From: Gemmatimonadales bacterium
GTDB lineage: Bacteria > Gemmatimonadota > Gemmatimonadetes > Gemmatimonadales > GWC2-71-9
Assembly (NCBI GenBank): GCA_036556625.1
Contig: DATBJC010000118.1
Location: 14,877 to 78,876 of the forward strand
Length of the DNA stretch: 64,000 nucleotides
Direction of reading: 5' to 3'
The position numbers and the translations under genes were made by a program. Below, piece after piece: positions 1 through 27,002 of the stretch (the first letter of the stretch is position 1; every line of letters begins with the position of its first letter). The notes beneath the pieces are model-generated. The model was not told the DNA's origin. It saw nothing but the letters and a program-made list of their open reading frames with translations, and did no database searches.

Positions 1-939
1 CAGCAGCAGATTGGCCACGTTGGTGCAGGCCAGCAGGAGGATGAGACCGGCCGCGGCCATGGCGAGGGCCGCACTCAGGACCAGCGTCTCGTGGGGAGTG
101 AAATCGGGATTGTCGAAGCCGCTGCCACCGGGGAGGATCCGCGTGCCTCGGTCGCGATTGGTATCGGGATGGAGCTGCTCCAGGCGCGCCGCGAAGTCCG
201 CGAGCATGGCGGATGCCGTTTCGCGTCCGAGTCCGGCCCGGAGCCGTCCGGCCACGATGAGCCAGGTGCTCTCACGATCGTCCAGCAGACCCTCAGAGCC
301 CGGGATCACCTGGGGGTGCATCATCATCGGCACCCAGACATCGGGGTGGAATCCGAACTTGCGCACCCCGGTGTACCCCGCGGGGGCGACGCCGATGACG
401 GTGAAGGGATGCCCGTTGAGCCGCAGCACGCGTCCGATCACGCCGGGATCGCCCCCGAACCGGTCGCGCCAGGCGCGATGGCTCAGCACGACCAGAGGAT
501 CGGACCCGGGACCCCGGGCATCTTGAGGCTGGAAGACCCGACCCAGGCTAGGCCGAAGTCCCAGCGCGGAGAAATAGTTCTCGGTGACCAGCTCGCTCCA
601 CACCATCTCCGCGCCGTTCGGCCCTGTCAGGCTCACCGGAAAGCCCTGTTGCGCCACCAGCCCGGCGAAGATGCCGCTGCGGTCGCGGTAGTCGAGGTAC
701 TCCGGGTACGACAGGTTCCGGGTGCGGCCGGTCCGTCGCTCCGTGGCGTAGAGCCCCACCACTTCGCCGGGACGGTCCACCGGCAACGGGCGAAACAACA
801 GCCCGTTCACCATGCTGAAGATGATGGTGTTGGCCCCGACGCCCAGCGCGAGCGTCAGCATGGCGGCCAGGGCGAACCCGGGACTCCTGAGGAGCTGCCG
901 CACTCCATAGCGAAGGTCTCGCAGCAGCCACTCGGTCAT
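1..939 (-). CDS. ADOP-type (duplicated FtsX/MacB-like) ABC permease, 5' part only; gene continues past the left edge
   Basis: Not in the ORF track because it has no stop in the window. My reverse-strand translation from ATG 939-937 gives MTEWLLRDLRYGVRQLLRSPGFALAAMLTLALGVGANTIIFSMVNG... and stays open to nt 1, ending ...LLLACTNVANLLL. These are the same N-terminal and TM motifs as the full-length paralogs upstream. The start overlaps the upstream stop (ATGA, 936-939). Confidence 0.85.
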   Translation of the reverse strand, partial: MTEWLLRDLRYGVRQLLRSPGFALAAMLTLALGVGANTIIFSMVNGLLFRPLPVDRPGEVVGLYATERRTGRTRNLSYPEYLDYRDRSGIFAGLVAQQGFPVSLTGPNGAEMVWSELVTENYFSALGLRPSLGRVFQPQDARGPGSDPLVVLSHRAWRDRFGGDPGVIGRVLRLNGHPFTVIGVAPAGYTGVRKFGFHPDVWVPMMMHPQVIPGSEGLLDDRESTWLIVAGRLRAGLGRETASAMLADFAARLEQLHPDTNRDRGTRILPGGSGFDNPDFTPHETLVLSAALAMAAAGLILLLACTNVANLLL

Positions 940-3356
940 TCCGACCTCAGCGCGATCAGGGGATCGAGCCGCGCGGCGCGGCGCGCGGGAAGCGCGCAGG
1001 CCGCCCAAGCGGCGGCGAGAAGAATCACCGCCACCAGCCCGAACGTCGCCGGATCGTGGAGGCTGACTTCGTAGAGCTCGGGCGCCAATGCGCGGCCCAA
1101 GAGCCAGGCCGCCATCGAGCCCAGCACTACGCCCACTCCGGCCAGCGCCACCGCCGGACGAACCACGGCGCGCCGGATCTCGCGGGCCGCCGCACCCAGC
1201 GCCATACGGATGCCGATCTCACGAGTGCGCTGACTCACGGAGTAGGCGATGACACCGTAGACGCCGACCGCAGCGAGCAGCAGCGCCAGCCCGGCGAAGC
1301 CGCCGAGCAGCAGGAGATTGAAGCGCTGGGGAGAGACCGAGCCGTGGAGCAGTGCCGGCAGGGTGGTCAGATCGGTGATCGGCTGGTCGGAGTCCAGCGC
1401 ATTGATCTCCCGCTTCACCGTGCGCGCAACCGCGGCGGGATCGCCCGCGGCGCGGACCACGACCGTCATCCCGCCGTGGGGATACTGGCGGAACGGGACG
1501 TAGAGCTCCGCCCGGGGCCGCGCCGCGAGACTCCGATGGCGCACGTCGCCCACCAGCCCGACGATGGTCGCGGCGCCGAAGCTTCCGCCGACCCAGACCC
1601 GCCGCCCGACCGGGTCCTCCCCTGGGAAGAACCGGCTCGCCAGCGTCTGATTGACCATCACTACTTTGGCCCCGTCCTCCCGATCGGTGTGATCGAATGC
1701 ACGGCCCCGCATCACCGGTATCCCGAGCGCCCGGAAGTACCGACCCTCGATCACCCGGAAGTCCACTTCCTGGCGATCGGCGGTCGCGGGCGGCGGGCTG
1801 CCATCGGGGGAAAACGGGAGGTCGTAGTCGATGCCCACGGGGTTCATCGGGAGCGTGGTCACCGCACCGGCGGCGGTGATTCCAGGGCGTCGCGCCAGCT
1901 GCTCGACCAGCCGGGAGAAGAAGGCGATCTGCTGCGGGTCTTCGGAGTACTGCGCGCCGGACAGGAACAACGTCGCGGCCACCACCTGCTCGGGGTCGAA
2001 GCCGGGATCGACCTGTTGCAGGCGCAGGAGACTCCGCAGGTGCAGACCAGCCGCCACCAGCAGGACCACCGACAGCGCCACCTCCACCACGATGAGTCCG
2101 CGCCGGGCCCTGCCCCTCTCTCGCCCCGCGGTCAGCCGCTCCCCCGAGCCACTGAGAGGCGCCCGGCGATCGAGACCGATAACCCGTAGCGCCGGAATCA
2201 CGCCGCAGAGGAAGGTGACCGGGATCAGGAGGGCCAGGGTGAAGGCCAGCACTCGCCCGTCGAGGGTGGCTTCGCGCCAGCCGGGAAGGAGGCCGGGGTC
2301 GAACGCCTGGACCAGCGGCACCGCCCACGCGGCGAGCGCGATTCCGCCGGTGGCGCCCATCGCTGCCACCACCGCGCACTCCATGACCATCAGGCGCAGC
2401 AGGCGGGCCGGCGCACCGCCGAGGGCTACCCGGATGGCGAGCTCGCGCTGGCGATCGAGGGCGCGGGCGAGAAAGAGATGACCGACGTTGGCGCAGGCCA
2501 GCAGCAGCACCAGCGCCACCGTGGCCAGCAGGAGCGCGACCGCGGACCGTCCGCCGGCAGCGACCGCCTCGCTCGCGGGGCTGGCGAGGATGGTCCAACC
2601 CCGGTTGGTCTCGGGATGGGCGTCCGCCAGGCGGCCGGCCACTACGTCGAGCTCCGCCGTGGCGTCGGCCAGCGCGGCGCCCGTGGCGAGCCGGGCGAGA
2701 ACGTTGAACCGCCGCTCGGCCCGGCTGACCAGCTCGGACGCATCGAAGGCGAGCGGGTTCCACAGCGCCACCGTGGCATCGTTGGGGAAGCGGAAACCTG
2801 CCGGCATCACCCCGACGATCTCGTAGGGCTCGCCATCGAGCGTCAGCGTCCGTCCTATCGCTTTGGGATCGCCACCCATCCGATCGAGCCAGAATCCGTG
2901 GCTGAGGATCACCACCCGGTCGCGGCCGGCAGTCTCCTCTTCAGGCAGGAAGTCCCGCCCCAGCGCCGGCGAGACGCCCAACATGCGGAACAGGTTGGCC
3001 GAGGCCCGTACCGACGCCAGCTCCTCGGGCTCGCCGGTGCCGCTGAGCGCGAATCCCCAGCTGTCCCAGGCAGCCAGCTCGTCGAACGCTCTCGATTCCC
3101 TCCGCCAGTCGAGGAAGTTGGCCGCGGAGGCCCGCTCCCGCTCCTTGCCGACCGCGGCCTGGCGCTCCCACAGCATGACCAGCCGATCGGCGGTGGAATA
3201 CGGCAGCGGCCGGAGCAGTGCCGCGTCGGCCAGGCTGAAGAACGCGCTGTTGGCACCAATGCCAAGCGCCAGGGTCAGGACCGCCGCCGCCGTGAACCCC
3301 GGACTCCGGCGAAGGCGCCGTATCGCGAGGCGAAGGTCGGGGCCGAGATCGCCCAT
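936..3356 (-). CDS. ADOP-type ABC permease (two FtsX-like 4-TM halves, two periplasmic domains)
   Basis: Track ORF 936..3359. N-terminus MGDLGPDLRLAIRRLRRSPGFTAAAVLTLALGIGANSAFFS, internal LLLACANVGHLFLAR, C-terminus RLDPLIALRSE-stop. ATG at 3356 overlaps the upstream TGA (TGATG); the GTG at 3359 is the alternative start. Confidence 0.9.
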   Translation of the reverse strand: MGDLGPDLRLAIRRLRRSPGFTAAAVLTLALGIGANSAFFSLADAALLRPLPYSTADRLVMLWERQAAVGKERERASAANFLDWRRESRAFDELAAWDSWGFALSGTGEPEELASVRASANLFRMLGVSPALGRDFLPEEETAGRDRVVILSHGFWLDRMGGDPKAIGRTLTLDGEPYEIVGVMPAGFRFPNDATVALWNPLAFDASELVSRAERRFNVLARLATGAALADATAELDVVAGRLADAHPETNRGWTILASPASEAVAAGGRSAVALLLATVALVLLLACANVGHLFLARALDRQRELAIRVALGGAPARLLRLMVMECAVVAAMGATGGIALAAWAVPLVQAFDPGLLPGWREATLDGRVLAFTLALLIPVTFLCGVIPALRVIGLDRRAPLSGSGERLTAGRERGRARRGLIVVEVALSVVLLVAAGLHLRSLLRLQQVDPGFDPEQVVAATLFLSGAQYSEDPQQIAFFSRLVEQLARRPGITAAGAVTTLPMNPVGIDYDLPFSPDGSPPPATADRQEVDFRVIEGRYFRALGIPVMRGRAFDHTDREDGAKVVMVNQTLASRFFPGEDPVGRRVWVGGSFGAATIVGLVGDVRHRSLAARPRAELYVPFRQYPHGGMTVVVRAAGDPAAVARTVKREINALDSDQPITDLTTLPALLHGSVSPQRFNLLLLGGFAGLALLLAAVGVYGVIAYSVSQRTREIGIRMALGAAAREIRRAVVRPAVALAGVGVVLGSMAAWLLGRALAPELYEVSLHDPATFGLVAVILLAAAWAACALPARRAARLDPLIALRSE

Positions 3357-5797
3357 CACTCGGTCCTGAGCGCGCGCATCGGGTCCACCGCGGCAGCCCG
3401 GCTGGCCGGCAGCCAGCTCGCCAGCACCGCCACCACGGCGAAGAGCGCGACGACGGTAACGAGCGTCGTCGGATCGGTCGGGCTCACATCCACCAGGAAC
3501 GCACCCAGCAGCCGGGTGGCGGCCGCAGCGGAGATCAGGCCGATCCCGAGCCCCGCCACGGTGAGTGCCAGAGCCCGGCGGACCACCAGCATCCTGACAT
3601 CGCGCGACCGCGCTCCCAGCGCCATGCGGATGCCGATCTCGGCCGTGCGCTGCGAGACCACGTAGGACATCACGCCATAGAGCCCGAAGGCCGCCAGCAG
3701 CGCCGCGACCAGCCCGAAGACGCCCAACACGGTGGCGCCCACCCGCTGCGGGAGCAGCGCGTACCCCAGATGCTCCGCCATCGTGTTCGCTTCCACCGGC
3801 AGCTCGGGGTCGAGGGCGTGGGCCTCGCGAATGAGCGCCGGCAGGATCGAACGGGCATCGCCGGCGGCTCGCACGACGAGCACCATGTCGGGCTCGTAGG
3901 CCTGAGCGAACGGCTCGTAGAAGTGCGGCTGGGGCGCTTCGGTCAGCGACCAGTACTTGCCATCCTTCGCTACCCCGATGACCTCGCGCGCGCCTCCCCT
4001 CCGGCTGGAGAAGCGACGGCCGATGGGGTTTTCCCCCGGCCAGAACCGGCGGGCGAAGCTCTCATTGACGATAGCCACCGGCGCGGAGCCCTCGCGGTCC
4101 CGGGAATCGAAGCCGCGACCTTGCACCAGCGGGATTTCCATGGTCTCGAAGTACCCGGCATCGACGGTGTTGATGCCGAACTCCATCTCCTCACCCTCTG
4201 CGGGAGCATAGCCTTCGACTTCGATGCCTCGGCGTTGCCGGGAAAACCCCAGGGGCACGATCTCGGTCAGACTCACCGCCTCGACGCCCGGCAGGGATCG
4301 GACCCGGCGCTGGAGCTCGGTGTAGAAGGCCCGGCCGCGCAGCGAGTCGTAGCCCTGGATGCCCAGCTCGAGACGAGCGAGCGCGAGTCCTTCGGCGCGG
4401 AATCCCGGATCGATGCGGGTGGCGTTACGAAGACTGGCGAGAAAGAGACCCGCGGCCGCCAGCACGACCAGCGAGACCGCCACCTGTGCGATGACCAGTC
4501 CGTCGCGCAATCCGATCCGTCGCGGACCTCCGGCAGCGCTCAGGTCCCCACGCAGCGCGGCCGTGCCGTCCAGCCGGGTGGCACGGAGTGCCGGCGCGAG
4601 GCCGGAGAGCAAGACGGTGACGGCCGTGGCCAGCACCGTGAAGAGGAGGATGCGGGTGTCGAGCGGAAAATCGAGGGCGACCGGCACCGGAAGCGGCGGC
4701 TCGAAGCTGGCCAGCGCGCCGGTGGCCCAGGTGGCGAGCACCACGCCGCCTACGGCGCCGGCGGCCGCCAGGACCAGCCCCTCGGTGAGCAGCTGCCGCA
4801 CCAGCCGCGCGCGGCCCCCACCCAGCGCGAGCCGGACCGCGACCTCGCGCCGGCGTGCGGTGCCGCGGGCCAGCAGGAGATTGGCCAGGTTGGCACAGCA
4901 GATCGCCAGCACCAGGCAGGCGACGCCCATCAAGAGTGCCAGGAACTGAGTGACCGGACCGCGGATGGTAGGAAATACCCGCGCGTCCCGTTCCGGAAGC
5001 ACCGTCACCACCCGGGCACTGCCGGTCCGGTCGATCCAGGTCCGGCCATAGGTGCCGTGAAGCCGCGCCGCCACTACGCCGAGCTGGCTCTGCAGCTCGC
5101 CGACACTCACGCCGTCCCGAAGCCGGCCCACCAGGAAGAGCCCGCGGTCACCGCGATTGGTCAGCATGTCGTCCGCCGGCGAGAGCACCCGATTTGCGGC
5201 CAGCGAGGTCCACAGCTCGACCCGGATTCCCCGCATCGCGCCGCTGAAGCTCTCCGGCGCCACCCCGGCGACGGTGAAGCTGGAGCCGGAGACCTTGATG
5301 GTGCGGCCCACGACGTCCGCCGCCCCGCCGAATCGGCGGTGCCACAGGCCGTATCCGATCACCACCTCGGTCTCGGTGGTACCGGGGGCGAATCCGTGAC
5401 CCAGGGCCAGCGGCACGCCCAGCACGCCGAAATAGTTTTCGCTCACCATCTCGCCCATCACGCGGAAGCTCTGTGATCCCCACGCCACGTTGAACGGCTG
5501 GGCCACGAAGGCGGCAAGGCCCTGCAGGCCCGGCGCGCCGGAGGTGAAGTCCACGTAGTCGGCGTAGGACGAGGTGCCGTAGCGAGGCCCGCTGAAATCG
5601 CTGGTGAACACCATCACCAGCCGCTCGGACTGGCGCAGGTGGGCCGGCGGCCGGAGGAACACCGTGTTGATCACGCTGAAGATCGTCGTGGTCGAGCCGA
5701 TGCCGAGGCCGAGCATCGCGATGGCCAGCAGCGCGAAACCCGGCGAGCGAAGCAGCTGGCGGACCGCGAAGCGGAGGTCCTGCCGGAAGGAATCCAT
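3356..5797 (-). CDS. ADOP-type ABC permease
   Basis: Last 813 codons of the 1275-aa track ORF 3356..7183. The family N-terminus MDSFRQDLRFAVRQLLRSPGFALLAIAMLGLGIGSTTTIFSV begins at ATG 5797-5795, overlapping the upstream TGA by 1 nt. Contains ICCANLANLLLARG and ends VDPMRALRTE-stop. Confidence 0.9.
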   Translation of the reverse strand: MDSFRQDLRFAVRQLLRSPGFALLAIAMLGLGIGSTTTIFSVINTVFLRPPAHLRQSERLVMVFTSDFSGPRYGTSSYADYVDFTSGAPGLQGLAAFVAQPFNVAWGSQSFRVMGEMVSENYFGVLGVPLALGHGFAPGTTETEVVIGYGLWHRRFGGAADVVGRTIKVSGSSFTVAGVAPESFSGAMRGIRVELWTSLAANRVLSPADDMLTNRGDRGLFLVGRLRDGVSVGELQSQLGVVAARLHGTYGRTWIDRTGSARVVTVLPERDARVFPTIRGPVTQFLALLMGVACLVLAICCANLANLLLARGTARRREVAVRLALGGGRARLVRQLLTEGLVLAAAGAVGGVVLATWATGALASFEPPLPVPVALDFPLDTRILLFTVLATAVTVLLSGLAPALRATRLDGTAALRGDLSAAGGPRRIGLRDGLVIAQVAVSLVVLAAAGLFLASLRNATRIDPGFRAEGLALARLELGIQGYDSLRGRAFYTELQRRVRSLPGVEAVSLTEIVPLGFSRQRRGIEVEGYAPAEGEEMEFGINTVDAGYFETMEIPLVQGRGFDSRDREGSAPVAIVNESFARRFWPGENPIGRRFSSRRGGAREVIGVAKDGKYWSLTEAPQPHFYEPFAQAYEPDMVLVVRAAGDARSILPALIREAHALDPELPVEANTMAEHLGYALLPQRVGATVLGVFGLVAALLAAFGLYGVMSYVVSQRTAEIGIRMALGARSRDVRMLVVRRALALTVAGLGIGLISAAAATRLLGAFLVDVSPTDPTTLVTVVALFAVVAVLASWLPASRAAAVDPMRALRTE

Positions 5798-8205
5798 CAC
5801 TCGGCCCTGAGTGTTCCCGCGGGATCCACCTGCATGGCGCGCCGGGCCGGCAGCACACACGCCGCGAGCGCGACCGCCGCGATGAGGCAGGAGATCGCGA
5901 CGAAGATGGCCGGGTCGTCGGGCTGGACGGCGTACAACAGCGAGGCCAGGAACCGCGCCAGTCCGGCGGCCGCGAGCACGCCGAGAACGATCCCGACAGC
6001 CACCGTCAGCATCCCCTCTCCCACCACCAGCCGGATGATCTCCGCCCGGCGGGCGCCCAGCGCCATCCGGATCCCGATCTCCTGGGAGCGCTGCACCACA
6101 CCGTAGGAGATGACGCCGTACACCCCGATCGCGGCCAGCGCCAGGGCGACCAGAGCGAACGTCGCCAGGACAATCGCACGGAACCGGTCGGTAGCGATCG
6201 AGGCGCCCTTCACGCGGGTCAGGCTCCGGATGTCGGACACCGGCACCGTCGGATCGAGAGTCGCCACTATTCCCCGGATCGCGGGAGCGAGGGCCGAGGG
6301 ATCCATCGCGGTGCGCACCAGCAACGCCATCTCCGGAAGCCCGACCTGTGCCTGCGAGCCGTACATCTGGGGGCGGCTTTCGGTAGCGAGCGACCGCTGC
6401 TTCACATCGCCGACCACGCCGACCACCGTCATCCAGCCGCCTTCCTCCGGCTCGCCCAGCGTGAGCCGCTTGCCGATGGCGCTCTCGTTGGGCCAGAAGC
6501 GCCGCGCCAGCGACTGGTTGACCACCACCACCGCGGGCGACTCCCACCGGTCCCGCTCCGCCAGATCGCGTCCCTGGAGCAGCGGGATTTCCATGGTGGC
6601 GAAGTAGCCCGGGGTGACGACGTTGAACTCGGTGCGGGGACGCAGCTGCGTTTCGAGCGGCGGCTGCCCTTCGACGCTGAAGGCGTAGCGCGCCCCGTCG
6701 GCCCCCAGCGGCAGGTAGCTCACCGCCGCGGCCGCCGTGACGCCCGGCAGGGCCTCGGCGCGCTCCACCAGCTCGCGGAAGAATCCGATGACTCGAGCCG
6801 TGTCGGGATTCGCCCGGGAAAGGGCGAGCCGGGCGGTGAGGACGCCGTCGGGATTGAATCCGGGATCCACCTCCTGCAAACGGCGGAAGCTCTGCACCAT
6901 CAGGCCGGTGCCGACCAAGAGCAGAAGCGCCAGGGCGATCTCGGTGACCACCAGCACTCGCCGGGTGCGCTGCCGGTGAATGCCCCCCGAGGTGCGGCCC
7001 CCGTCGCGCAGCGAGGCTTCGGCATTCGGCGTCGCCGTATGGGTAGCGGGAAGGAGACCGAACACGAGACTGGTGAGCACTGCCACGCCGAAGGTGAAGC
7101 CGAGCACGGCGCGGTCCAGCACGATGCCTTCGCCGGCCGGCAACTCCTCGGGACCGAGGGCGAGCAACCCGTCCACCCCCCACGCCGCGAGCACCAGGCC
7201 CAGCGCTCCACCCAGCAGCGCGATCACCAGGCTCTCGGTCAACAGCTGACGCACCAGCCGTCCGCGGCTCGCGCCCAACGCGGCCCGGATCGAGAGCTCC
7301 CGTCGCCGAGCCGAGCTTCGAGCCAGCATCATGTTGGCGACGTTGGCGGATGCGATGAGCAGGACGAACCCCACCGCACCGAGGAGCACCAGCAACGTTG
7401 GCCTCAGGTTCTCGACCAGCGACTCGTGCAGCGGACGCAGCGCGATGCCCCAGCCCTTGTTCGACGCCGGATACTCACGGGCCAGACGGTCCGCGACCGG
7501 ATCGAGCCGAGCTGCGGCGCGCTCGACGGTCATCCCGGGTCCCAGGCGGCCGATCACGTCGTAGGCGTGGAGCCCGCGATTGTCCAGAAGCTGGGGATCG
7601 TCGTGCGACACCGGGATCCAGAGATCGACCCTCTCGGGAAAGTGAAAGTCCGCGGTCGCCACACCGACGACCGTCAGACTCCGCCCGTCCACGGTCACGC
7701 TGCGGCCGACCAGGTCCCTCTCGCCCGCGAAGCGGCGCTGCCAAAGATCGCGGCTCAGGACCGCGACGTCGTCGGCGCCTCGGACGTCCTCCCCTTCGGT
7801 GAAGTACCGGCCGTACACCGGCGTGAGCCCCAGCACCCGGAAGAAGTCGGCACTCACCAGCGCGCCGGTGACCCGCTCGGCTTCGTCCGCACCGGTGAGA
7901 TTCAGCGCCTGGGTACGATAGATCGCCGATGACTGGAAGACGCCGCCGCTCTTCTGCCAGTCGCGAAAGTTGGGGTAGGAGACCGTATTGGTAGTGCCGT
8001 CCGGGCGCGCCTCGTTGACCCGCACCAGACGCGACGGCTCCTGGAAGGGCAGCGGCCTGAGCAGGACCGCGTTCACCACGCTGAAGATCGCGCTGTTGGC
8101 GCCGATGCCGAGGCCCAGTGTCAAGACGGCGATGGCGGTGAAACCCGGCGAGCGGATGAGCTGCCTGACGGCGTACCGGAGGTCGCGCCCCAGCTGGTCG
8201 GTCAT
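5797..8205 (-). CDS. ADOP-type ABC permease
   Basis: 802-aa track ORF. MTDQLGRDLRYAVRQLIRSPGFTAIAVLTLGLGIGANSAIFSVVN, LLIASANVANMMLAR, ends QVDPAGTLRAE-stop. The start overlaps the upstream stop (ATGA, 8202-8205). Confidence 0.9.
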   Translation of the reverse strand: MTDQLGRDLRYAVRQLIRSPGFTAIAVLTLGLGIGANSAIFSVVNAVLLRPLPFQEPSRLVRVNEARPDGTTNTVSYPNFRDWQKSGGVFQSSAIYRTQALNLTGADEAERVTGALVSADFFRVLGLTPVYGRYFTEGEDVRGADDVAVLSRDLWQRRFAGERDLVGRSVTVDGRSLTVVGVATADFHFPERVDLWIPVSHDDPQLLDNRGLHAYDVIGRLGPGMTVERAAARLDPVADRLAREYPASNKGWGIALRPLHESLVENLRPTLLVLLGAVGFVLLIASANVANMMLARSSARRRELSIRAALGASRGRLVRQLLTESLVIALLGGALGLVLAAWGVDGLLALGPEELPAGEGIVLDRAVLGFTFGVAVLTSLVFGLLPATHTATPNAEASLRDGGRTSGGIHRQRTRRVLVVTEIALALLLLVGTGLMVQSFRRLQEVDPGFNPDGVLTARLALSRANPDTARVIGFFRELVERAEALPGVTAAAAVSYLPLGADGARYAFSVEGQPPLETQLRPRTEFNVVTPGYFATMEIPLLQGRDLAERDRWESPAVVVVNQSLARRFWPNESAIGKRLTLGEPEEGGWMTVVGVVGDVKQRSLATESRPQMYGSQAQVGLPEMALLVRTAMDPSALAPAIRGIVATLDPTVPVSDIRSLTRVKGASIATDRFRAIVLATFALVALALAAIGVYGVISYGVVQRSQEIGIRMALGARRAEIIRLVVGEGMLTVAVGIVLGVLAAAGLARFLASLLYAVQPDDPAIFVAISCLIAAVALAACVLPARRAMQVDPAGTLRAE

Positions 8206-10658: not shown

Positions 10659-11368
10659 CACGCCACCTCACGGTCGAGGGGTCCACGGGGCACGATCTTG
10701 CCGTCGAAGAGAAAGACGTTGCGATTGGCCCGCCCCAGATAGCGGGGATCGTGCGTGACGATCACGATGGTGGCGCCGTCCCGATTGAGCTCATCCAGCA
10801 GCTCCATCACCTGGGCGCCGTTCCGGGAGTCGAGATTGCCGGTGGGCTCGTCGGCCAGCAGCACCAGCGGCTTGCCCGCCACGGCGCGGGCCACCGCGAC
10901 CCGCTGCTGCTGGCCGCCGGAGAGCTGCGAGGGATAGTGATGGATCCGGTGGAGCAAGCCGACCCGCTGCAGGGCGTCGTGAACCAGCGAGCGCCGCTCC
11001 GCCGCGCCGAGCCCCCGATACTTGAGCGGAAGCTCGACGTTCTGGTAGACGTTCAGATCGCCGATCAGGTTGAAGGCCTGGAAGATGAACCCGATGGCGC
11101 GGCTGCGGACCCGGGCTCGCTGCGCCGGGGAGAGCGTGGCCACCGGCTCTCCGGCGAGCACGTAGCTCCCTTCGCTGGGCGAATCCAGCAGGCCGAGGAT
11201 GGACAGCAGCGTGGTCTTGCCGCAGCCCGATGGGCCGCAGATCGCCACGAACTCGCCGGCCCGGATCTCCAGATCGATCCGGGACAGCGCGTGGGTCTCC
11301 ACATCCTCGGTGTGGAAGATCCGGGAGATGCCGTCCAGCCGGATCAGGGGATCGATCGCGAGTGCCAT
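10658..11368 (-). CDS. ABC transporter ATP-binding protein, MacB/LolD type (stand-alone NBD), copy 2
   Basis: C-terminal 236 codons of track ORF 10658..11926, starting MALAIDPLIRLDGISRIFHTEDVETHAL. Walker A GPSGCGKT, signature [14 protein letters not shown], Walker [13 protein letters not shown]-loop THDPRY. The start lies 2 nt after the upstream permease TAG. Confidence 0.92.
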   Translation of the reverse strand: MALAIDPLIRLDGISRIFHTEDVETHALSRIDLEIRAGEFVAICGPSGCGKTTLLSILGLLDSPSEGSYVLAGEPVATLSPAQRARVRSRAIGFIFQAFNLIGDLNVYQNVELPLKYRGLGAAERRSLVHDALQRVGLLHRIHHYPSQLSGGQQQRVAVARAVAGKPLVLLADEPTGNLDSRNGAQVMELLDELNRDGATIVIVTHDPRYLGRANRNVFLFDGKIVPRGPLDREVA

Positions 11369-11370
11369 GG

Positions 11371-13806
11371 CTACTCGCTCCGGAGCGCGACCATGGGATC
11401 GGTGCGCGCGGCCCGGCGGGCGGGCAGCGCGGCGGCCATGACCGCCACTGTCATGAGAACGACGATGCCGCCGGCGAAGGTTGGCGGATCGGTGGGACTC
11501 ACCCGGAAGAGCAGCGTCGACAGGAGTCCGGACAACGCCAGCGCGCCCGCCAGTCCCACGACCATCCCCACACCCGCGAGCTTGGCGCCGTGGCGCACGA
11601 CCATGGCCAGCACGTCGGCGTGGCGGGCGCCCAGGGCCATACGAATGCCGATCTCCTGGGTTCGCTGCGCCACGCCGTAGGAGATGACGCCGTACACGCC
11701 GATGGCGGCCAGCAGGAGCGCTATCGCGCCGAACACGGTGAGCAGCATCGTGCTGAACCGCGACTCCGCCAGGGAATCCACCAGCCGGCCCTGCATGGTG
11801 CCGAGGTTGTACAGCGGAACCGCGGGGTCGACCTCCGCCACCGCCTGGCGGATCGGAGTCATCAATGGGGCCGGGTCGCCCTGGGCTCGAACCGCGACGG
11901 TCAAGGTGCGGTCGGTCCAGCTCCATGCCGCCGCGGGCGCCTGCAGCATGGGCAGGTAGAACTCGGGCTCCGGCGCCTGGTCCAACCCCTGGGCGCGAAC
12001 ATCGCCCACCACCCCCACCACTTCCTTCCAGTTGGGCGACCCATTGGGCCCGGGCTCGCAGCAGGCTATGCGCTTACCGATCGGGTCCTCACCGCGAAAC
12101 GCCTCCCGCGCGAGCGTCTGGTTGATCACCATCACCAGCGGCGCGCCCCGCCGGTCGTCCGCGGTGAATGTCCGGCCCCGAAGCAGCCGGATCTTCAGGG
12201 TGGCGAAGTACCCGGGCGTCACCAGCCGCAGTTGGGAGTTGATCGCCGAGGCGATGTCGAGCGGGCGGCCTTCCGGCACCAGGCCGTTGCTGCCGCCGCC
12301 CTCCAGCGGCGCGGTCGACACCAGCGCGCCGGCGTCCACCCCCGGCACTGCGGCGATCCGTTCCTCGATGCGCTGGAACGCGCGGGTCACCTGCTCCGGC
12401 GACTGATAGGTCACCGCCGGCAGCGAGACCCGCCCCGCGACTACGCCGCTGGGATCGAATCCCGGATCCACCTGGTTCAGCGCGATGGCGCTGCGGATCA
12501 GGAGCCCCGCGCCGGTGAGCAGCACCAGGGCCACGGCGATCTCGCCGACCACGAGCACGTTACGCACTCGGTCACGGCTGCCGGCCCGCGACCCGCTCCG
12601 ACCTCCCTCCTTCAGCGCTTCGTGCGGCAGCCGGCCGGCCATGCGGAGCGCGGGTGCGAGGCCGAACACCAGTCCGCTCAACAGGGTGAGGCCCACGGCG
12701 AAGGCGAGCGCCGGCCCATCCAGTCGCGCCTGCGCAAGGCGCGGCACATCCTGGGGACCGAACGCCGCCAGTAACGCGACACCCCAGTAGCCCACGATCA
12801 CCCCGAGCAGCCCGCCCGAGACCGCGAGCACCAGGCTCTCGGTGAGCGCCTGGCGGATCAGGTGTCCCCGGCCGGCGCCGACCGCCGCGCGGATGGCCGT
12901 CTCGCGCGAGCGCGCGGCACCGCGGGCCAGCAACAGGTTGGCGATGTTGGCGCAAGCGATGAGCAGCACGAACCCGACGGCCCCCAGCAGCACGAAGAGC
13001 CGGGGCCGATAGTCGCCGACCAGCTCCTCCATGAACGGCGCCATGACGATGCCGCGGTCCCGATTCTCCTTGGGGTACGTCGTCTCGAGCCATCGAGCGA
13101 GGTTCCGCAACTCGGCCTCGGCCTGGAAGACGGTGACCTCCGGCTTGAGCCGGCCCAGCACCGACAGATAGTGCTCGTCGTGCATCGCGAGCCGCTCGGC
13201 CGAGAACGCCGTCGGCACCCAGAGCTCCTCGCCGAACACGGCGTAATCCATGGAAGCCGGCATGACGCCGACCACGCGATGCGGGCGACCGTCGAGCCGG
13301 ACCTCGCGCCCGATCACCCCGGGGTCGGTGCCGAAGCGCCGCCGCCAGAGCGCGTCGCTCAGCACGACGACCTCGCCGCGGCCGGGGGCGTCCTCCTCCG
13401 GGAGAAACGTGCGCCCGAGGGCCGGCGGCACGCCGAGCATCGCGAAGTAGTCGGCACCCACTCGAGCGCCGTCCACGTTCTCCGGTGCGTCGGCGCCGGC
13501 GAGATTGAAGCTCTCGCCGTGACCCGGGACGAAGTACCGGAAGCTTCGCTGCTGCCGGTCCACGTCGGCCCAGTTGCCGGCGGAGAACGAGCTGGCCAGG
13601 TCTTTCCAGGTGGTGCGGACCAGCTGGATCTCCCCGGGGTTCTTGAATGGCAAGGGGCGGAACAGCACGGCGTAGACCACGCTGAAGATGGCCGTCGTGG
13701 CACCGATGCAGAGCGCCAGGGTCAACACCACGGAGACGGTGAGCGCCGGGCTCTTGCGCAGGGAGCGGAAGGCGAAGCGGATGTTCTGAAGCAGGGAGTC
13801 CATCAT
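11371..13806 (-). CDS. ADOP-type ABC permease
   Basis: Last 811 codons of track ORF 11371..13965. The family N-terminus MMDSLLQNIRFAFRSLRKSPALTVSVVLTLALCIGATTAIFSVVY starts at ATG 13806-13804, overlapping the upstream TGA. Contains LLIACANIANLLLARG and ends RTDPMVALRSE-stop. Confidence 0.9.
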   Translation of the reverse strand: MMDSLLQNIRFAFRSLRKSPALTVSVVLTLALCIGATTAIFSVVYAVLFRPLPFKNPGEIQLVRTTWKDLASSFSAGNWADVDRQQRSFRYFVPGHGESFNLAGADAPENVDGARVGADYFAMLGVPPALGRTFLPEEDAPGRGEVVVLSDALWRRRFGTDPGVIGREVRLDGRPHRVVGVMPASMDYAVFGEELWVPTAFSAERLAMHDEHYLSVLGRLKPEVTVFQAEAELRNLARWLETTYPKENRDRGIVMAPFMEELVGDYRPRLFVLLGAVGFVLLIACANIANLLLARGAARSRETAIRAAVGAGRGHLIRQALTESLVLAVSGGLLGVIVGYWGVALLAAFGPQDVPRLAQARLDGPALAFAVGLTLLSGLVFGLAPALRMAGRLPHEALKEGGRSGSRAGSRDRVRNVLVVGEIAVALVLLTGAGLLIRSAIALNQVDPGFDPSGVVAGRVSLPAVTYQSPEQVTRAFQRIEERIAAVPGVDAGALVSTAPLEGGGSNGLVPEGRPLDIASAINSQLRLVTPGYFATLKIRLLRGRTFTADDRRGAPLVMVINQTLAREAFRGEDPIGKRIACCEPGPNGSPNWKEVVGVVGDVRAQGLDQAPEPEFYLPMLQAPAAAWSWTDRTLTVAVRAQGDPAPLMTPIRQAVAEVDPAVPLYNLGTMQGRLVDSLAESRFSTMLLTVFGAIALLLAAIGVYGVISYGVAQRTQEIGIRMALGARHADVLAMVVRHGAKLAGVGMVVGLAGALALSGLLSTLLFRVSPTDPPTFAGGIVVLMTVAVMAAALPARRAARTDPMVALRSE

Positions 13807-16226
13807 CACTCGTTCCTCAGGGCGACCATCGGGTCGGACTGGGCCGCCCGTCGCGCCGGGAGATAGATCGCGGCGAGCGCCACCGCGACGAGAAAGCAGG
13901 TCACCGCGACGAAGGTCGCCGGGTCCGCGGCGCCGACCCCGAAGAGCAGACTGCGAAGCACCCATCCTCCGGTGAGGGCGCCGGCCACGCCGAGGGCCAT
14001 GCCGGCAAGCACCGGCCGCATGCCCTGTCGGATCACCATCCGCAACAGCGTGCCGCCGCCCGCACCCAGCGCCATCCGAATGCCGAGCTCGCGGGTGCGC
14101 TGCACCACGCCATACGCCACGACTCCGTAGATTCCCACCGAGGCGAGCACCAGCGCGGCGAGCGCGAAGCCGGCGAGCACCGAGGCGTTGATCCGGGGCC
14201 GGGCGAGCGAAGCCGCCTTGCGCTCATCCAGGGTGGCCACATCGGCGAGAGGGAGCTCGGGATCCAGCGACGCCAGCGACCGGCGCAGCGCCGGGATCAG
14301 CGCGGCCGGCTCACCCTGAGTCCGGACGGTGAGGACCACGGAGCGGGTCGGGGCCTGGCTGAACGGGAGGTAGAGCTGGGGATAGCCCTGCTCGCTGAGT
14401 CGTTCGTGGCGGACGTCGCCCGCCACACCCACGATCGTCATCCAGACGGCCTCGGGATCCCGGGGATCGCCCAGCGTGATCCGAGCGCCGATGGCGCGGC
14501 CGCGCTCCCAGAAGCGATCGGCCAGGCTCTGGCTGATGACGGCGACCCGCTCGCCATCGGGACGATCGCCGCCGTCGTAGAAGCGCCCGGCGAGCAAGGG
14601 AATGCGCAGGGTCTGGAAGTAGCCCGCGCTGGTGGTGAACACGGCCGCGTCCTGCACCGCGCCTTCCGGAGCCGTCTCCTTACCCTGGATCTCGAAGCTG
14701 AAGTACGGCGGTGAGTCGCCCAGCGGCGCGTCGGAGACCAGCGCGGCGGCGCGTACCCCGGGCTGAGCGGCCGCGTGCGACAGCAACTGCTCACCGAAGG
14801 CGGCCCACTGATTCTCCTCGGGGTACTTGAGACGAGGCAGGGTCACCCGCGCGGTGAGCACCCGATCAGTCGAGAAGCCGGGATCCACCTGCTGGAGGCG
14901 GTCGAAGCTGCGAAGCAGGAGCGTCGCGCCGATCAGCAACACGAACGCCAGCGCCACCTCGGCCAGCACCAGCGCCGATCGGGCTCGGTGGATGCCGCTC
15001 CCGCCGGCGACGCCCCGGCTCCCTTCGATGAGACCGTCACTCAAGTCGCGTCCGGAGAGCCGCCACACCGGCGCGAGCCCGAAGAGCAGGCCGGCCAGCA
15101 GCGAGAGTCCCAGGGTGAAGCCGAGGACCCGGAGGTCGAGCCCGATCTCCTGGATGCGCGGTATGGTCCCCGGCTCCAGCGAGCGCAACGCCTCGATGCC
15201 CCAGAACGCCAGGAGCAGGCCGAGGCCGCCCCCGATCAGGCCGAGCACCACGCTTTCCAGCAGCAACTCGCCGCCCAGCCGTGCGCGCGAGGCACCCAGC
15301 GCGGATCGGATCGTCACTTCGCGAGACCGCTGGGCGGCGCGAGCCAGCATGAGGTTGGCTACGTTGGCGCAGGCGATCAGCAGCACCAGGGCCACGGCGC
15401 CCATGAAGACGAGGAGCGCGGGGCGGATCTCCCCCACTACCTGCTCGCGCAGCGCGACCACCTCCGCGCTCCAATTGGCATTGGTTTCCGGGTACTGACT
15501 CTCCAGCCGGGCGGCGATCGTGGCCATCTCCTGCTGGGCCCGTTCCAGGCTCACCCCCGGCCGGAGTCGCCCGAAGACCGTGAGGAAGTCGGCCCGGCGG
15601 GGACGGGTCGTATCGGTGGCCAGCGGGGTCCACACGTCCACCCGGCGCTCGAACCGGAGCTCGGTGGGCACGATGCCGATCACGGTGTAAGGCATGCCGC
15701 TCAGCAGGATCTGCCGACCCACGATGTCCTGCTGGCCGCCGAACCGCCGGAGCCAATACCCCTCGCCCAGCATCGCCACCTTCGGCGCGGCACCGCGCTC
15801 CTCGCCCTCCCGGAACCCACGGCCGATGGTCGGCGTGACCCCGAACACGGTGAAGAGGGCGGCCGTAGCGATTCCGCCCGATACCACCTCCGGCTCACCC
15901 TGGCCGGTGAGGTTGAACCGGGTGTAGGTCATCGCCGCCATGCCCTGGAAGGAGCGCGCCTGACTCCTCCAGTCGAGGAAGTCCGGCAGCGATGCGGTCT
16001 CCCGGCCGATCGCGGAATGGCGTCCCCACACGACGACGAGGCGATCGGGATCGGGATAGCCCAGGGGGTCGAGCAGGACACCATTGACGACGCTGAAGAC
16101 GACCGTGTTGGCGCCGATGCCCAGCGCGAGCGTGGCCACCGCGGCCAGACTGAACGCGGGAGCGCGGCGCAGCGAGCGGATGGCGCGGCGGAGGCCGGCG
16201 AGCGGAGCAAGCATGCGCTCGATCAC
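13806..16226 (-). CDS. ADOP-type ABC permease
   Basis: 806-aa track ORF. GTG start 16226 is preceded by AAGGAG (complement of 16233-16238). ...LRRAIRSLRRAPAFSLAAVATLALGIGANTVVFSVVN, LLIACANVANLMLAR, ends QSDPMVALRNE-stop. Confidence 0.9.
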   Translation of the reverse strand: MIERMLAPLAGLRRAIRSLRRAPAFSLAAVATLALGIGANTVVFSVVNGVLLDPLGYPDPDRLVVVWGRHSAIGRETASLPDFLDWRSQARSFQGMAAMTYTRFNLTGQGEPEVVSGGIATAALFTVFGVTPTIGRGFREGEERGAAPKVAMLGEGYWLRRFGGQQDIVGRQILLSGMPYTVIGIVPTELRFERRVDVWTPLATDTTRPRRADFLTVFGRLRPGVSLERAQQEMATIAARLESQYPETNANWSAEVVALREQVVGEIRPALLVFMGAVALVLLIACANVANLMLARAAQRSREVTIRSALGASRARLGGELLLESVVLGLIGGGLGLLLAFWGIEALRSLEPGTIPRIQEIGLDLRVLGFTLGLSLLAGLLFGLAPVWRLSGRDLSDGLIEGSRGVAGGSGIHRARSALVLAEVALAFVLLIGATLLLRSFDRLQQVDPGFSTDRVLTARVTLPRLKYPEENQWAAFGEQLLSHAAAQPGVRAAALVSDAPLGDSPPYFSFEIQGKETAPEGAVQDAAVFTTSAGYFQTLRIPLLAGRFYDGGDRPDGERVAVISQSLADRFWERGRAIGARITLGDPRDPEAVWMTIVGVAGDVRHERLSEQGYPQLYLPFSQAPTRSVVLTVRTQGEPAALIPALRRSLASLDPELPLADVATLDERKAASLARPRINASVLAGFALAALVLASVGIYGVVAYGVVQRTRELGIRMALGAGGGTLLRMVIRQGMRPVLAGMALGVAGALTGGWVLRSLLFGVGAADPATFVAVTCFLVAVALAAIYLPARRAAQSDPMVALRNE

Positions 16227-16237
16227 GGCAGTCTCCT

Positions 16238-16936
<699 letters not shown>

Positions 16937-16975
16937 TGGATGTCCGGGGTACGGGGTTAGTTGGGGTCCGGCTGA

Positions 16976-17068
16976 GAGCTATCAGCTATCAGCCATCAGA
17001 CATGCACACCTGCCATCATGGTCACGTCGTCTGATTGACGTTGTCTGACGGCTGATAGCTGATAGCTC
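16976..17068 (-). other. Intercistronic 27-bp stem / 39-nt loop hairpin built from tandem heptads, between the adaptor and ATPase genes
   Basis: Left arm 16976-17002 is gagctatcagctatcagccatcagaca. Right arm 17042-17068 is tgtctgacggctgatagctgatagctc. The arms are reverse complements except one position (16995 a / 17049 c). That position is a U-G wobble only in the minus-strand (operon-sense) RNA. No U-tract follows. Confidence 0.8.
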
Positions 17069-17071
17069 ATC

Positions 17072-18319
17072 TCAATTGATCCGCACTCGATCATGTCCGT
17101 CCCATCGCGACATGTCCGAGATGATCACCTTGTCGCCCGGCTGGAGACCTCCGGCGATCTCGACCGTATTCACCGAGGTGCGGCCCAGGCGGACGTTGAC
17201 CCGGCCCGCCTCGCTGCCGTCCGGCGTCAGCTTGAACAGGCCGACCGCGCTGTTGGCCTGACCGTAGGCCGGTCGGCCCACGTGCAGCACGTTTTCCAGC
17301 CGCTCGACCTGGATGGTGCCGTCCACCGAGAGATCGGGCCGGGCGCCTCGAGGCATCTCGCCCTCGAGCGACACGTCCACCGTCACGGTGCCGTTCTGGA
17401 CCGCAGGGTCGATCCGATAGACCTTGCCCTTCACGATCCCGTTCCGGGTATCGATCGCTGCCGGCTGACCGATGGCGACGTCCTTGGCCTGCGTCTCGGG
17501 AATCCGAAGCACTGCCTTCAGCTTTCCCGGTTCGACCAGTCGCGCCAGGGTGGCCCCGGACTGGGCCCACTGCCCCACTTCCAGCGGCAGCTCCTGGAGG
17601 ATGCCGTCCGCGCCGGCCAACACCTTCATCGAGCGGACCCGGCCCCGTTGGAACTCGGTCACCGCCCGGAGCCGGCCCACCTGCGCCTTCTGCAGTGTCA
17701 GCTGCGAGTCCGCCGCGCCCACCATCACCGCAAGCCGCTGTTCTTCTACCTTGTATCGGGTCTCGAGCTCCTCGACCCGGTCCTTGGCCCGGCTCGCCTC
17801 CATCGCCGAGATCAGCTCCTTGGTGGCGAGTCCTTCTGCCGCTTCGGCGTTCCGCTTGGCGTCTTGATACGCGGCCTTGGCCGCGGCGACCGCGGCCTCC
17901 TGATTCAAGCGCTGGGTCACCAGGTCGGTCTGCAGGTTGACCCGGTCGGCCTGGGCCACGGTGAGTTGGCGCTCCGATTCCAGCGCCTCCAGCTGCACAT
18001 CGGGATTGCTCAGCTCCAGCAGCACGGTCTCGGGGTGAACTTCCTGGCCTGGTTCCGCCAGGCGCCGCTCGACACGACCGGCCGTCACCGCGGAGATGTA
18101 CCGGACCCGCTCCGGCACCAACGTGCCGGGGCCGCGAACCTCGATCACCAGCGGACCCTTCTGCACCGAGTCGATCCACACCGACGCCCGGTCCACTCGA
18201 GGCGCGGCCGGCTTCAGACTGCGAAGGCCGAGCGTGGCCGCCACCAGACCGACCAGTGCCAGACCGCCGTAGATCAGCCGCTTGCGGTTGCGATTGACCG
18301 GTGCCCGGGGAATGTCCAC
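17072..18319 (-). CDS. HlyD/MacA-family periplasmic adaptor (membrane fusion protein)
   Basis: 415-aa track ORF, GTG start with AAGGA upstream. N-terminal anchor LIYGGLALVGLVAATLGL. Long alpha-helical hairpin segments (DVQLEALESERQLTVAQADRVNLQ..., KDRVEELETRYKVEEQRLAVM). C-terminal beta-domains (VKGKVYRIDPAVQNGTVTVDV). First gene of the ABC operon. Confidence 0.85.
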   Translation of the reverse strand: MDIPRAPVNRNRKRLIYGGLALVGLVAATLGLRSLKPAAPRVDRASVWIDSVQKGPLVIEVRGPGTLVPERVRYISAVTAGRVERRLAEPGQEVHPETVLLELSNPDVQLEALESERQLTVAQADRVNLQTDLVTQRLNQEAAVAAAKAAYQDAKRNAEAAEGLATKELISAMEASRAKDRVEELETRYKVEEQRLAVMVGAADSQLTLQKAQVGRLRAVTEFQRGRVRSMKVLAGADGILQELPLEVGQWAQSGATLARLVEPGKLKAVLRIPETQAKDVAIGQPAAIDTRNGIVKGKVYRIDPAVQNGTVTVDVSLEGEMPRGARPDLSVDGTIQVERLENVLHVGRPAYGQANSAVGLFKLTPDGSEAGRVNVRLGRTSVNTVEIAGGLQPGDKVIISDMSRWDGHDRVRIN

Positions 18320-18589
18320 GCCTATTCCTTATTAAAGTGTTCCATCTCTGCTTTGCCGCCGGCTGCTCCAGCGGCCGGCGCCGGGCTGCAGAGGGAAGGA
18401 CCGTGCCGGACCCACGCTCATCTTCAACGAATTGGAGAATCACGACTTGCGAAAACCGGTCGGGCGAGCGGCCGGGCTCGAAATGTTCGCTCCCGGGATG
18501 TTCGAATCCCGGAATCGAACACTTGGGTGTGTGCACCAGTGCTGCTCGGTCGTCCCCCTCACAATTCCCGCCCTTCTCCAGGTCCCCGC

Positions 18590-24136: not shown

Positions 24137-24166
24137 CCTCACTTCCTCTCTGCCCTGCCGGGCCGT

Positions 24167-26284: not shown

Positions 26285-26470
26285 ATTCGACTCCTCGGGA
26301 ATGGGGGGGATGCGCCTGCCGCGCGGATGGACTGCCAGCAAACCTGACGATTTGCCGCCTCACTTCCGTGAGCCCGCTCACACGCGAAACCCGGCAACCG
26401 GTGAATGATTGGCAAGCGCCGGCCCAATGCTAGCTTTGTGCAGGCGCCACCTTCAACCGAGCGGCCGAGC

Positions 26471-26971: not shown

Positions 26972-27002
26972 GGGGGACCAGTTGAACCCCGGGACCCATC
27001 CC

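Follow-up and report, generated by a model that had tools for sequence, protein, structure and literature searches.

Do the duplicated ATP-binding cassette (ABC) permeases of the ADOP family work with ATPases and an adaptor of their own, and if so, how many permeases does each ATPase serve? The question is raised by a locus of a soil Gemmatimonadales bacterium (NCBI GenBank assembly GCA_036556625.1, contig DATBJC010000118.1, positions 14,877 to 78,876), whose full 64,000 nucleotides are hereafter called the window. The original description of the family model TIGR03434 is reported to have treated ADOPs as 'orphan', i.e., as lacking an adjacent ABC ATPase gene; in the window, at least seven ADOP genes form an array with two stand-alone ATPase genes and one adaptor gene in cis. 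We consider it probable that this array encodes MacB-type pumps that share the two ATPases, the one adaptor and an outer-membrane channel encoded elsewhere, and we infer the sharing because two ATPase genes and one adaptor gene are set against at least seven, and probably at least eleven, permeases. The array is a large and clean example of a widespread, experimentally unstudied variant of the MacB-type pumps and not a new kind of system.

Organization of the array

The minus strand of positions 1-18319 carries ten successive reading frames, the codon bias of which matches that of the remainder of the window (about 70% G+C). The first of these encodes an adaptor of the membrane fusion protein (MFP)/HlyD family (17072-18319; 415 amino acids) and is separated by a 93-nucleotide hairpin of heptamer repeats (16976-17068) from the gene of ATPase1 (16238-16936; 232 amino acids), a stand-alone MacB/LolD/DarD-type ABC nucleotide-binding protein. 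Two permeases follow, viz., perm1 (13806-16226; 806 amino acids) and perm2 (11371-13809; 812 amino acids), and then a second stand-alone ABC nucleotide-binding protein, ATPase2 (10658-11368; 236 amino acids). The remaining block consists of perm3 (8202-10661; 819 amino acids), perm4 (5797-8205; 802 amino acids), perm5 (3356-5800; 814 amino acids), perm6 (936-3359; 807 amino acids) and perm7 (1-939), the last of which is cut by the window edge and is represented by its N-terminal 313 amino acids, with no stop codon and with the N-terminal and second transmembrane helix (TM2) motifs of the family in place. The gene order and coordinates agree with those of a preliminary description of the window.

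The junctions, read from the sequence, are also as had been described. Stop-start overlaps of the form GTGATG/TGATG occur at four of them (13806, 10658, 5797 and 3356) and ATGA overlaps at two others (8202 and 936), perm2 and ATPase2 are spaced by 2 nucleotides (TAG CC ATG), and ATPase1 and perm1 by 11 nucleotides, with an AAGGAG that overlaps the ATPase1 stop codon. The sole sizeable gap in the array is that of 135 nucleotides between the adaptor and ATPase1. No sigma-70-like promoter was found in positions 1-19800, terminator-like sites in the same interval are no more frequent than expected by chance (2 found versus 4.3 expected), and no Rfam family matches anywhere in the window. The compact layout fits a single transcription unit, because the junctions overlap or abut and there is neither a promoter-like site nor an excess of terminators, and the genes are probably co-transcribed.

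Family, fold and coupling helices of the permeases

Permeases were assigned to the ADOP family with the NCBIfam model TIGR03434, which has a curated cutoff of 622.3 bits. The seven complete permeases of the window, i.e., perm1 to perm6 and a PadR-linked copy outside the array, perm8 (27552-30134, minus strand; 860 amino acids), score 837-997 bits from model positions 1-5 to 803 (perm1 948.6, perm2 965.7, perm3 956.4, perm4 997.3, perm5 837, perm6 906.4 and perm8 893.5 bits). All seven also match the MacB_PCD and FtsX models, and the ADOP genes of the window total about 18 kb, as given in the preliminary description. Each complete permease contains two MacB_PCD and two FtsX stretches and no ABC_tran match in Pfam, and these paired stretches therefore indicate an internally duplicated permease with no fused ATPase, as is characteristic of ADOPs. 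Fused two-unit permeases always have a separately encoded nucleotide-binding domain (NBD; PMC5985334). The 'orphan' trait does not hold for the array permeases, which have two ATPase genes in cis, nor for those of three related loci (L005, L008 and L075), but perm8 and the ADOP of locus L085 do match the 'orphan', PadR-linked pattern. 'Orphan' status is a descriptive trait and forms no part of the TIGR03434 model.

The array permeases are 35-46% identical to one another and, as far as their sequences tell, are old paralogs. Three motifs that had been described as shared among them are visible in the alignment, but the C-terminal DPxxALRxE motif, like the coupling helix, is a general feature of the FtsX/MacB family and is not specific to the array.

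The hydrophobicity profile and an AlphaFold2 (AF2) model of perm4 both place eight helices in the membrane in a 4+4 arrangement. The model was built on 71 family sequences and has a predicted local distance difference test score (pLDDT) of 86.5 and a predicted template modelling score (pTM) of 0.81. Its first half has transmembrane helices at residues 20-49, 259-299, 314-350 and 365-390, a layout repeated in the second half. In either half, helix 1 is followed by a β-rich periplasmic domain, and a short coupling helix connects helices 2 and 3 (residues 301-309 in the first half and 707-715 in the second). The two halves are joined by a short cytoplasmic linker (residues 391-414) of low pLDDT and 26% identity. 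Foldseek searches initiated using this model against the PDB found E. coli YbbP (PDB identifier 9ge6_A) as the best match, over the full length and with an E-value of 1.8e-20, followed by MacB, the pneumococcal Spr0694/5 transporter, LolCDE, HrtBA and BceAB. Each ADOP half also matches MacB in sequence (PDB identifier 5nik; E-value of 1e-15). In the predicted structure, an ADOP thus consists of two MacB-type units fused covalently into a pseudo-dimer and resembles a YbbP without its two linker helices. It shows structural features of type VII ABC transporters, viz., the four-helix unit with a large periplasmic domain that separates TM1 from TM2 and a coupling helix that joins TM2 to TM3, and the putative partner NBDs are canonical.

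The alignment of the 71 family sequences has 43 invariant residues, 12 of which fall in the two coupling-helix segments (Arg296, Arg300, Glu303, Arg307 and Gly311 in the first; Arg706, Glu709, Gly711, Arg713, Ala715, Gly717 and Ala718 in the second). The coupling-helix motifs are common to perm1 to perm6 and the distant perm8, and this conservation in all paralogs argues that every one of them docks an ATPase. Identity among the paralogs is 34-35% in the periplasmic domains versus 48-59% in the membrane segments. The expectation that the periplasmic domains would diverge while the coupling helices are conserved is thus borne out on both counts, though the difference between domains and membrane segments is moderate and not dramatic.

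The ATPases and the adaptor

ATPase1 matches ABC_tran with 122.8 bits, and its best NCBIfam models are DarD (254.8 bits, with a cutoff of 375) and the MacB NBD. The best named relatives of both ATPases are DarD, which is the top NCBIfam model, the MacB NBD and LolD, and no equivalog cutoff is reached. ATPase1 and ATPase2 each have the canonical form of Walker A, Q-loop, signature, Walker B-glutamate and H-loop, and both look active from their sequences. The two are 68.5% identical, and ATPase2 is basal within the ATPase1 clade.

A separate ATPase clade, which we call NBD2, differs from the window ATPases (40-46% identity) in having LSGGQQQL in place of LSGGQQQR, an NLH D-loop and a THS/THN H-loop, and ATPase2 lies outside it. 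NBD2 genes adjoin the adaptor or sit among ADOPs in Acidobacteriota, Gemmatimonadales and one gammaproteobacterium. They occur near the adaptor in ten loci, including that of a Gemmatimonadales relative (L004), where NBD2 lies between ADOPs like the window ATPase2 (for example, L004:13229-14062, L007:10963-11628, L008:7523-8188 and L012:10858-11526). This recurrence hints at heterodimeric motors, and one may ask whether ATPase1 and ATPase2 pair in the same manner, with subunits matching the two non-identical ADOP halves, an arrangement that would be compatible with sharing. The ADOP halves do have distinct, separately conserved coupling helices, many relatives keep two ATPase paralogs (the second being NBD2) near one adaptor, and the two types are often adjacent, as in L007, L012, L013, L015 and L017. 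However, the ATPase2 of the window is not of the NBD2 type but a fully canonical protein 68% identical to ATPase1, many duplicated-permease loci have a single ATPase gene, and homodimeric ATPases are able to serve asymmetric partners, such as LolD on LolC/LolE and YbbA on YbbP. A heterodimeric ATPase1/ATPase2 motor is, on balance, doubtful.

The position of the two ATPase genes suggests another arrangement, in which two fused operons encode two separate pump sets, with an ATPase1 homodimer and the adaptor for perm1 and perm2 and an ATPase2 homodimer for perm3 onward. Each ATPase gene directly precedes a permease block, the two ATPases are kept as distinct paralogs with a close counterpart of each in relatives, and a related array (L084) likewise has permeases on both sides of ATPase2. 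On the other hand, the coupling-helix motifs do not set perm1 and perm2 apart from perm3 to perm6, the second block has no adaptor gene of its own, and no promoter-like or terminator-like site accompanies the 2-nucleotide gap between perm2 and ATPase2. Moreover, each ATPase would still be common to several permeases under this arrangement, which we regard as unlikely in comparison with a motor shared by the whole array.

The adaptor matches TIGR01730 with 105.7 bits (cutoff 94.9), as well as the Pfam families HlyD_3 and HlyD_D23, and, as in MacAB-TolC-type systems, an MFP/HlyD adaptor is encoded alongside the transporter. It is 85-94% identical to many soil-metagenome proteins, and those among them that have names are labelled Gemmatimonadales. 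Its AF2 model has an N-terminal membrane helix (residues 10-32) and a confidently predicted α-hairpin of two helices of about 55-60 residues each (106-166 and 172-226; pLDDT 84-92). The predicted membrane helix and long hairpin fit a membrane-anchored adaptor that reaches an outer-membrane channel. The quality of the model as a whole (pLDDT 60, pTM 0.32) was too poor for a fold search, and it was set aside for that purpose.

Conservation and turnover among close relatives

An exact-sequence look-up of perm4 and perm6 found no identical record, and the genomic context was therefore taken from homologs. The partners that had been said to be encoded in cis, i.e., the adaptor and the ATPases, are real and are conserved with the array in relatives. 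For example, in locus L001 the adaptor is 92% and ATPase1 95% identical to those of the window, and ATPase2 has distinct counterparts in L001, L003 and L084, with nonsynonymous divergence (dN) of 0.05-0.07 relative to the first two. Gene order is conserved in these three loci, and single permeases come and go. L001 has the same order with perm4 absent, an 82-residue open reading frame (ORF; L001:20125-20373) being present at the expected position. L003 (7248-12130) has no perm5, and its orthologs of perm6 (77-79% identical, one frameshift) and perm7 are frameshifted. The perm7 ortholog of L003 is full length apart from its frameshift, and beyond it, where the window sequence would end, the array goes on with at least four more ADOP genes; tblastn traced the fragmentary close matches of perm7 to frameshifts in this ortholog and not to a truncated gene. 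In L084 (22.4 kb, both ends open), ATPase2 is preceded by at least three permeases and followed by at least seven. Because the L003 array continues and that of L084 is long, the window array probably comprises at least eleven permeases, as extrapolated from these homologous sequences.

Rates of evolution were computed between the window and L001/L003 as the ratio of nonsynonymous to synonymous divergence (dN/dS). The ratios are 0.043 for ATPase1, 0.066 for the adaptor and 0.09-0.12 for ATPase2, as against 0.12-0.33 for whole permease genes, with 0.13-0.44 in their periplasmic domains and 0.10-0.21 in their membrane/cytoplasmic parts. The permeases hence change several-fold faster than the motor, and their periplasmic domains fastest. 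For instance, perm1 and perm2 are 76% and 79% identical to their L001 orthologs (dN/dS 0.21 and 0.17, respectively), and perm3 is 68% identical to its ortholog in L001 and 89% to that in L003. All permease ratios are below 1, and the permeases are therefore genes maintained by purifying selection; no positive selection was detected in the domain-averaged dN/dS. Gene-by-gene orthology could not be carried beyond Gemmatimonadales, as array members from Acidobacteriota show no preference for any window paralog (40-48% identity to each), and such an assignment was discarded.

These data bear on the proposal that only the one or two permeases adjacent to an ATPase gene work, the rest being a birth-and-death reservoir of redundant or decaying paralogs, or ATP-independent proteins such as sensors or scaffolds. 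The variable array content of close relatives, the frameshifted copies in L003, a run of nine successive ADOPs with no ATPase in 22 kb (L086) and the label of orphans that the original description of TIGR03434 is reported to give them would all suit such a reservoir. However, all tested ortholog pairs are under purifying selection, the coupling-helix residues are invariant across the 71 family members, which come from many contexts, and the proteins of an ADOP cluster in Psychroflexus are abundant in the proteome (PMC3914696). We find the reservoir proposal quite improbable, more so than either alternative pairing of the ATPases considered above.

Spread of the module across phyla

One genome per GTDB species was scanned with the ATPase alignment, and the 80 loci returned were annotated with hidden Markov models of the window proteins over flanks limited to 10 kb on each side. 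At an ATPase identity of at least 69%, there are 20 loci, of which 15 have an adaptor, 13 at least one duplicated (~800-residue) permease and nine at least two. The corresponding numbers among the 29 loci at 52-68% identity are 24, 19 and 15. Below 52%, an adaptor is found in four of 31 loci and duplicated permeases in one, which has at least two, and 20 have ordinary FtsX permeases of ~400 residues. For the 49 loci at or above 52%, an adaptor is thus present in 39, at least one duplicated permease in 32 and at least two in 24.

Loci with duplicated permeases come from Acidobacteriota (Pyrinomonadaceae, Terriglobia and Acidiferrales), Verrucomicrobiota (Opitutales), Gammaproteobacteria (Lysobacteraceae, Steroidobacteraceae and Chiayiivirga) and Bacteroidota (Cyclobacteriaceae, Flavobacteriales, Dyadobacter, Aquimarina, Chryseobacterium and Bacteroidales). 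The closest relatives of the ATPases in four other phyla adjoin adaptors and duplicated permeases. Six loci (L005, L008, L025, L026, L032 and L044) have at least four permeases up to the flank limit. Permeases of L005 and L075 exceed the ADOP cutoff, and those of Bacteroidota match the ADOP model over its full length with scores under the cutoff (268-353 bits) and also resemble DarB. An OEP/TolC gene lies immediately upstream of the adaptor in L013, L025, L031 and L032. The module adjoins a sigma-54-dependent response regulator and a histidine kinase in L012, L021 and L044, and a histidine kinase in L074 and L082, and 10 of 45 loci have a sigma-54-type promoter a short way upstream of the adaptor, versus a background of 5.6%. 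The adaptor/ATPase/duplicated-permease architecture is, on this genomic evidence, a widespread module and not unique to the present bacterium.

Motors are also found without permeases. Five Acidobacteriota loci (L006, L007, L012, L015 and L017) have an adaptor and an ATPase 74-79% identical to ATPase1, with a second type of ATPase in all but L006 (the genes lie around positions 8500-14500 of each locus), and no FtsX-type permease occurs on either strand within their full 10-kb flanks. Masked sequence was considered as a cause and rejected, as no locus has a run of 20 or more N. In L012, the sigma-54 response regulator and histidine kinase follow the motor genes, and L007 and L015 have ORFs that are alike by size alone. 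In a Vicinamibacterales locus (L018), the adaptor-ATPase pair is flanked by ORFs of 767 (6170-8473) and 661 (10882-12867) residues, which have no Pfam match and stand in the positions expected for permeases.

That the same lineages contain motors lacking permeases and also permeases lacking motors, the latter in the nine-ADOP run of L086 and the lone PadR-ADOP pair of L085, is as predicted for a shared motor acting in trans. A broader proposition, which we find plausible but advance tentatively and would not favour to the degree that we favour sharing within the array, is that ADOPs across Gemmatimonadota, Acidobacteriota and beyond are interchangeable substrate-specific front ends on one trans-acting motor-plus-adaptor module, often with a TolC-type channel and sigma-54 two-component control. 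ADOP arrays and the permease-less Acidobacteriota loci would then be two extremes of one system.

A shared motor for many permeases

In the mechanism that we propose, the chromosomal array would be co-transcribed and would encode those parts of MacB-type (type VII ABC) envelope pumps that reside in the inner membrane and the periplasm. Each ADOP would dock two copies of the array's stand-alone ATPases, for which there is a precedent in YbbA, which binds YbbP 2:1 via two coupling helices (PMC12646458), and would cooperate with the one membrane-anchored adaptor and with an outer-membrane channel of the TolC type, the gene of which would lie elsewhere. Motor and adaptor would be pooled among the permeases, which, being most divergent in their periplasmic domains, may supply different substrate or partner specificities, and the same motor probably serves ADOPs encoded elsewhere, such as the PadR-linked copy. 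These pumps would likely serve to clear the periplasm, or the inner membrane's outer leaflet, of a variety of amphipathic toxins or peptides. The PadR link, the sigma-54 two-component link in relatives and the precedents of MacB, DarBCD and YbbAP would point to an inducible removal of envelope-active compounds.

The shared motor fits the conservation of the coupling helices, the faster evolution of the permeases, the variable array content and the permease-less loci. Several observations weigh on the other side. Sharing is not proved by gene counts, since the genome may hold further ATPase genes, be it past the window edge or in another region. The periplasmic domains exceed the membrane parts in divergence by a modest margin, which may simply reflect weaker constraint, and the frameshifts in L003 may stem either from genuine decay or from errors in long-read assembly. 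No window gene scanned has a Pfam OEP (TolC) match, as had been noted from the start, and outside the hairpin the adaptor was modelled with low confidence. Taken together, the earlier interpretation of a shared engine with diversified permeases fits the results, but the accompanying suggestion that the architecture is undescribed does not hold, as discussed below.

ADOP-like permeases number 75,740 representatives of 50%-identity clusters at an E-value of at most 1e-30, and dozens of copies per genome have been reported, which places them among the largest uncharacterised membrane-protein families in soil bacteria. In the literature searched, we found no study of the function or structure of any ADOP or multi-permease array, and nothing on PadR with FtsX, or on FtsX/MacB paralogs, in Acidobacteria. 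If the motor is shared, the old 'orphan' puzzle would be explained, a modular, multi-permease mode would be added to the type VII ABC repertoire, and there would be a handle on how Acidobacteriota, Gemmatimonadota and Bacteroidota withstand soil chemical warfare. The window array offers a compact testable case, in which every part but the outer-membrane channel is found together.

Control region, hairpin and neighbouring genes

The hairpin between the adaptor and ATPase1 has a 27-bp stem with a minimum free energy of -66.2 kcal/mol (z = -7.3) and arms of tandem heptamers, (GCTATCA)n and (TGATAGC)n. In L001 (11249-11405) and L002 (1563-1719) the arms are (GCTATGA)n and (TCATAGC)n with another repeat number; the heptamers being altered on both sides, the two arms have therefore changed together. 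The hairpin is not followed by a U-tract and matches no Rfam family, and it may set the ratio of adaptor to pump expression or mark an RNA processing site.

Between the divergent genes of the adaptor and a lipoprotein lies a control region (18320-18637) with blocks that are conserved in alignment with L001 and L002. Upstream of the adaptor, one such block (18484-18521) forms an inverted repeat, TGTTCG...CGAACA. Another, a GGCACG-containing block (18393-18408) about 80-110 bp downstream of the repeat, includes CGGCACGGTCCTTCCC, which has three mismatches to the sigma-54 consensus and resembles a -24 element without the -12 GC. The spacing of the inverted repeat and CGGCACGGTCCTTCCC resembles that of an enhancer plus a sigma-54 promoter, although the match is weak: no canonical sigma-54 promoter was found upstream of the adaptor beyond this site, and sigma-54-like sites across the window are at chance level (16 found versus 20 expected).

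Divergent from the adaptor, the plus strand of 18638-22503 encodes a lipoprotein with a PD40-like repeat (starting MLCLVSLAAAC at 18638) and a 928-residue outer-membrane protein with CarboxypepD_reg and TonB-dependent-receptor barrel domains; both genes neighbour the adaptor in L001 too. Between the array and the PadR-ADOP pair, a redox/stress-type gene block (22500-27548), syntenic in L001, encodes a pyridine-nucleotide disulphide oxidoreductase, two SRPBCC/polyketide-cyclase-like membrane proteins, a short-chain dehydrogenase, a PEBP and a Cu/Zn superoxide dismutase. The PadR-ADOP pair itself (27552-30490, minus strand) consists of perm8 and a PadR-family regulator (30134-30490, minus strand; Pfam PadR, 63 bits), which overlaps the start of perm8, and a similar lone pair is present in L085 (9655-12697). 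An N-terminal extension of about 58 residues distinguishes perm8; many ADOP family members of 870-900 residues have a similar extension, and one protein from Opitutales matches the NCBIfam 'permease prefix domain 1'.

Comparison with known systems

The preliminary description knew of no system with this architecture, but the module is widespread and at least two accounts precede it, viz., those of a Psychroflexus cluster (PMC3914696) and of DarBCD (PMC8442675). In Psychroflexus torquis, as figured in 2014, 8-10 ADOP paralogs are spread over a 42-kb cluster on genomic island 43, among other transporter genes of which some are ATP-binding, and the cluster's proteins are abundant (PMC3914696). 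The cluster differs from the window array in belonging to a mobile island of Bacteroidota, and its account is purely descriptive and proposes no shared motor. DarBCD of Photorhabdus is an adaptor/ATPase/permease exporter, in which loss of any of darB, darC or darD cuts the darobactin titre 2-4 fold (PMC8442675). It has the same parts list as the array, i.e., an MFP adaptor, a stand-alone ATPase and a duplicated permease of ~780 residues, and Bacteroidota relatives of ADOPs match DarB over the full length. Unlike the array, DarBCD has one permease and is located in a biosynthetic cluster for a peptide made on the ribosome and modified after translation (RiPP), and the window proteins score under the equivalog cutoffs (NF038007/NF038008/NF038010) of DarD (254.8 of 375 bits), DarC (41.1 of 450) and DarB (about 26 of 700). 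The radical SAM gene nearest the array (62425-63315; LIAS_N match) is 44 kb away, and no peptide precursor gene was seen among the window genes scanned.

With MacAB-TolC, the array shares the membrane and periplasmic domains of MacB, which the ADOP halves match by sequence and fold, the MacB NBD, which the ATPases match, and an adaptor of the same periplasmic adaptor protein superfamily with an N-terminal membrane helix; TolC-type genes lie beside the module in relatives. It differs in that the NBD is unfused, the permease is a fused pseudo-dimer instead of a homodimer, many permease genes accompany each ATPase or adaptor gene, and no TolC gene is present in cis. YbbAP-TesA of E. coli (cryo-EM structures with PDB identifiers 9GE6-9GE8) likewise combines a separate ATPase with a permease of two fused units and two periplasmic domains. 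However, YbbP has 10 membrane helices, two of them linker helices, whereas ADOPs have 8 (4+4) and a cytoplasmic linker, the two are only 16% identical in sequence, and the partner of YbbAP, which has a single permease gene, is a periplasmic hydrolase and not an adaptor. LolCDE resembles the array in using one ATPase gene for two different permease units and in its type VII fold and coupling helices, but its two separate four-helix permeases form one fixed heterodimer with a single dedicated function and no adaptor.

A closer likeness to the proposed sharing is found outside the superfamily. In group II energy-coupling factor (ECF) transporters and in the sugar importers energized by MsiK or MsmK, many membrane components, each specific to a substrate, draw on one energizing module, whether their genes lie in cis or are dispersed over the genome, and the sharing has been demonstrated experimentally. 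The resemblance is a functional analogy without homology, as these are importers of unrelated folds with no periplasmic adaptor or outer-membrane channel, and as sharing by the ADOPs is deduced here from gene content and conservation. If ADOPs do draw on a common motor, the ADOP system would be the exporter counterpart of the shared-module logic of the ECF importers.

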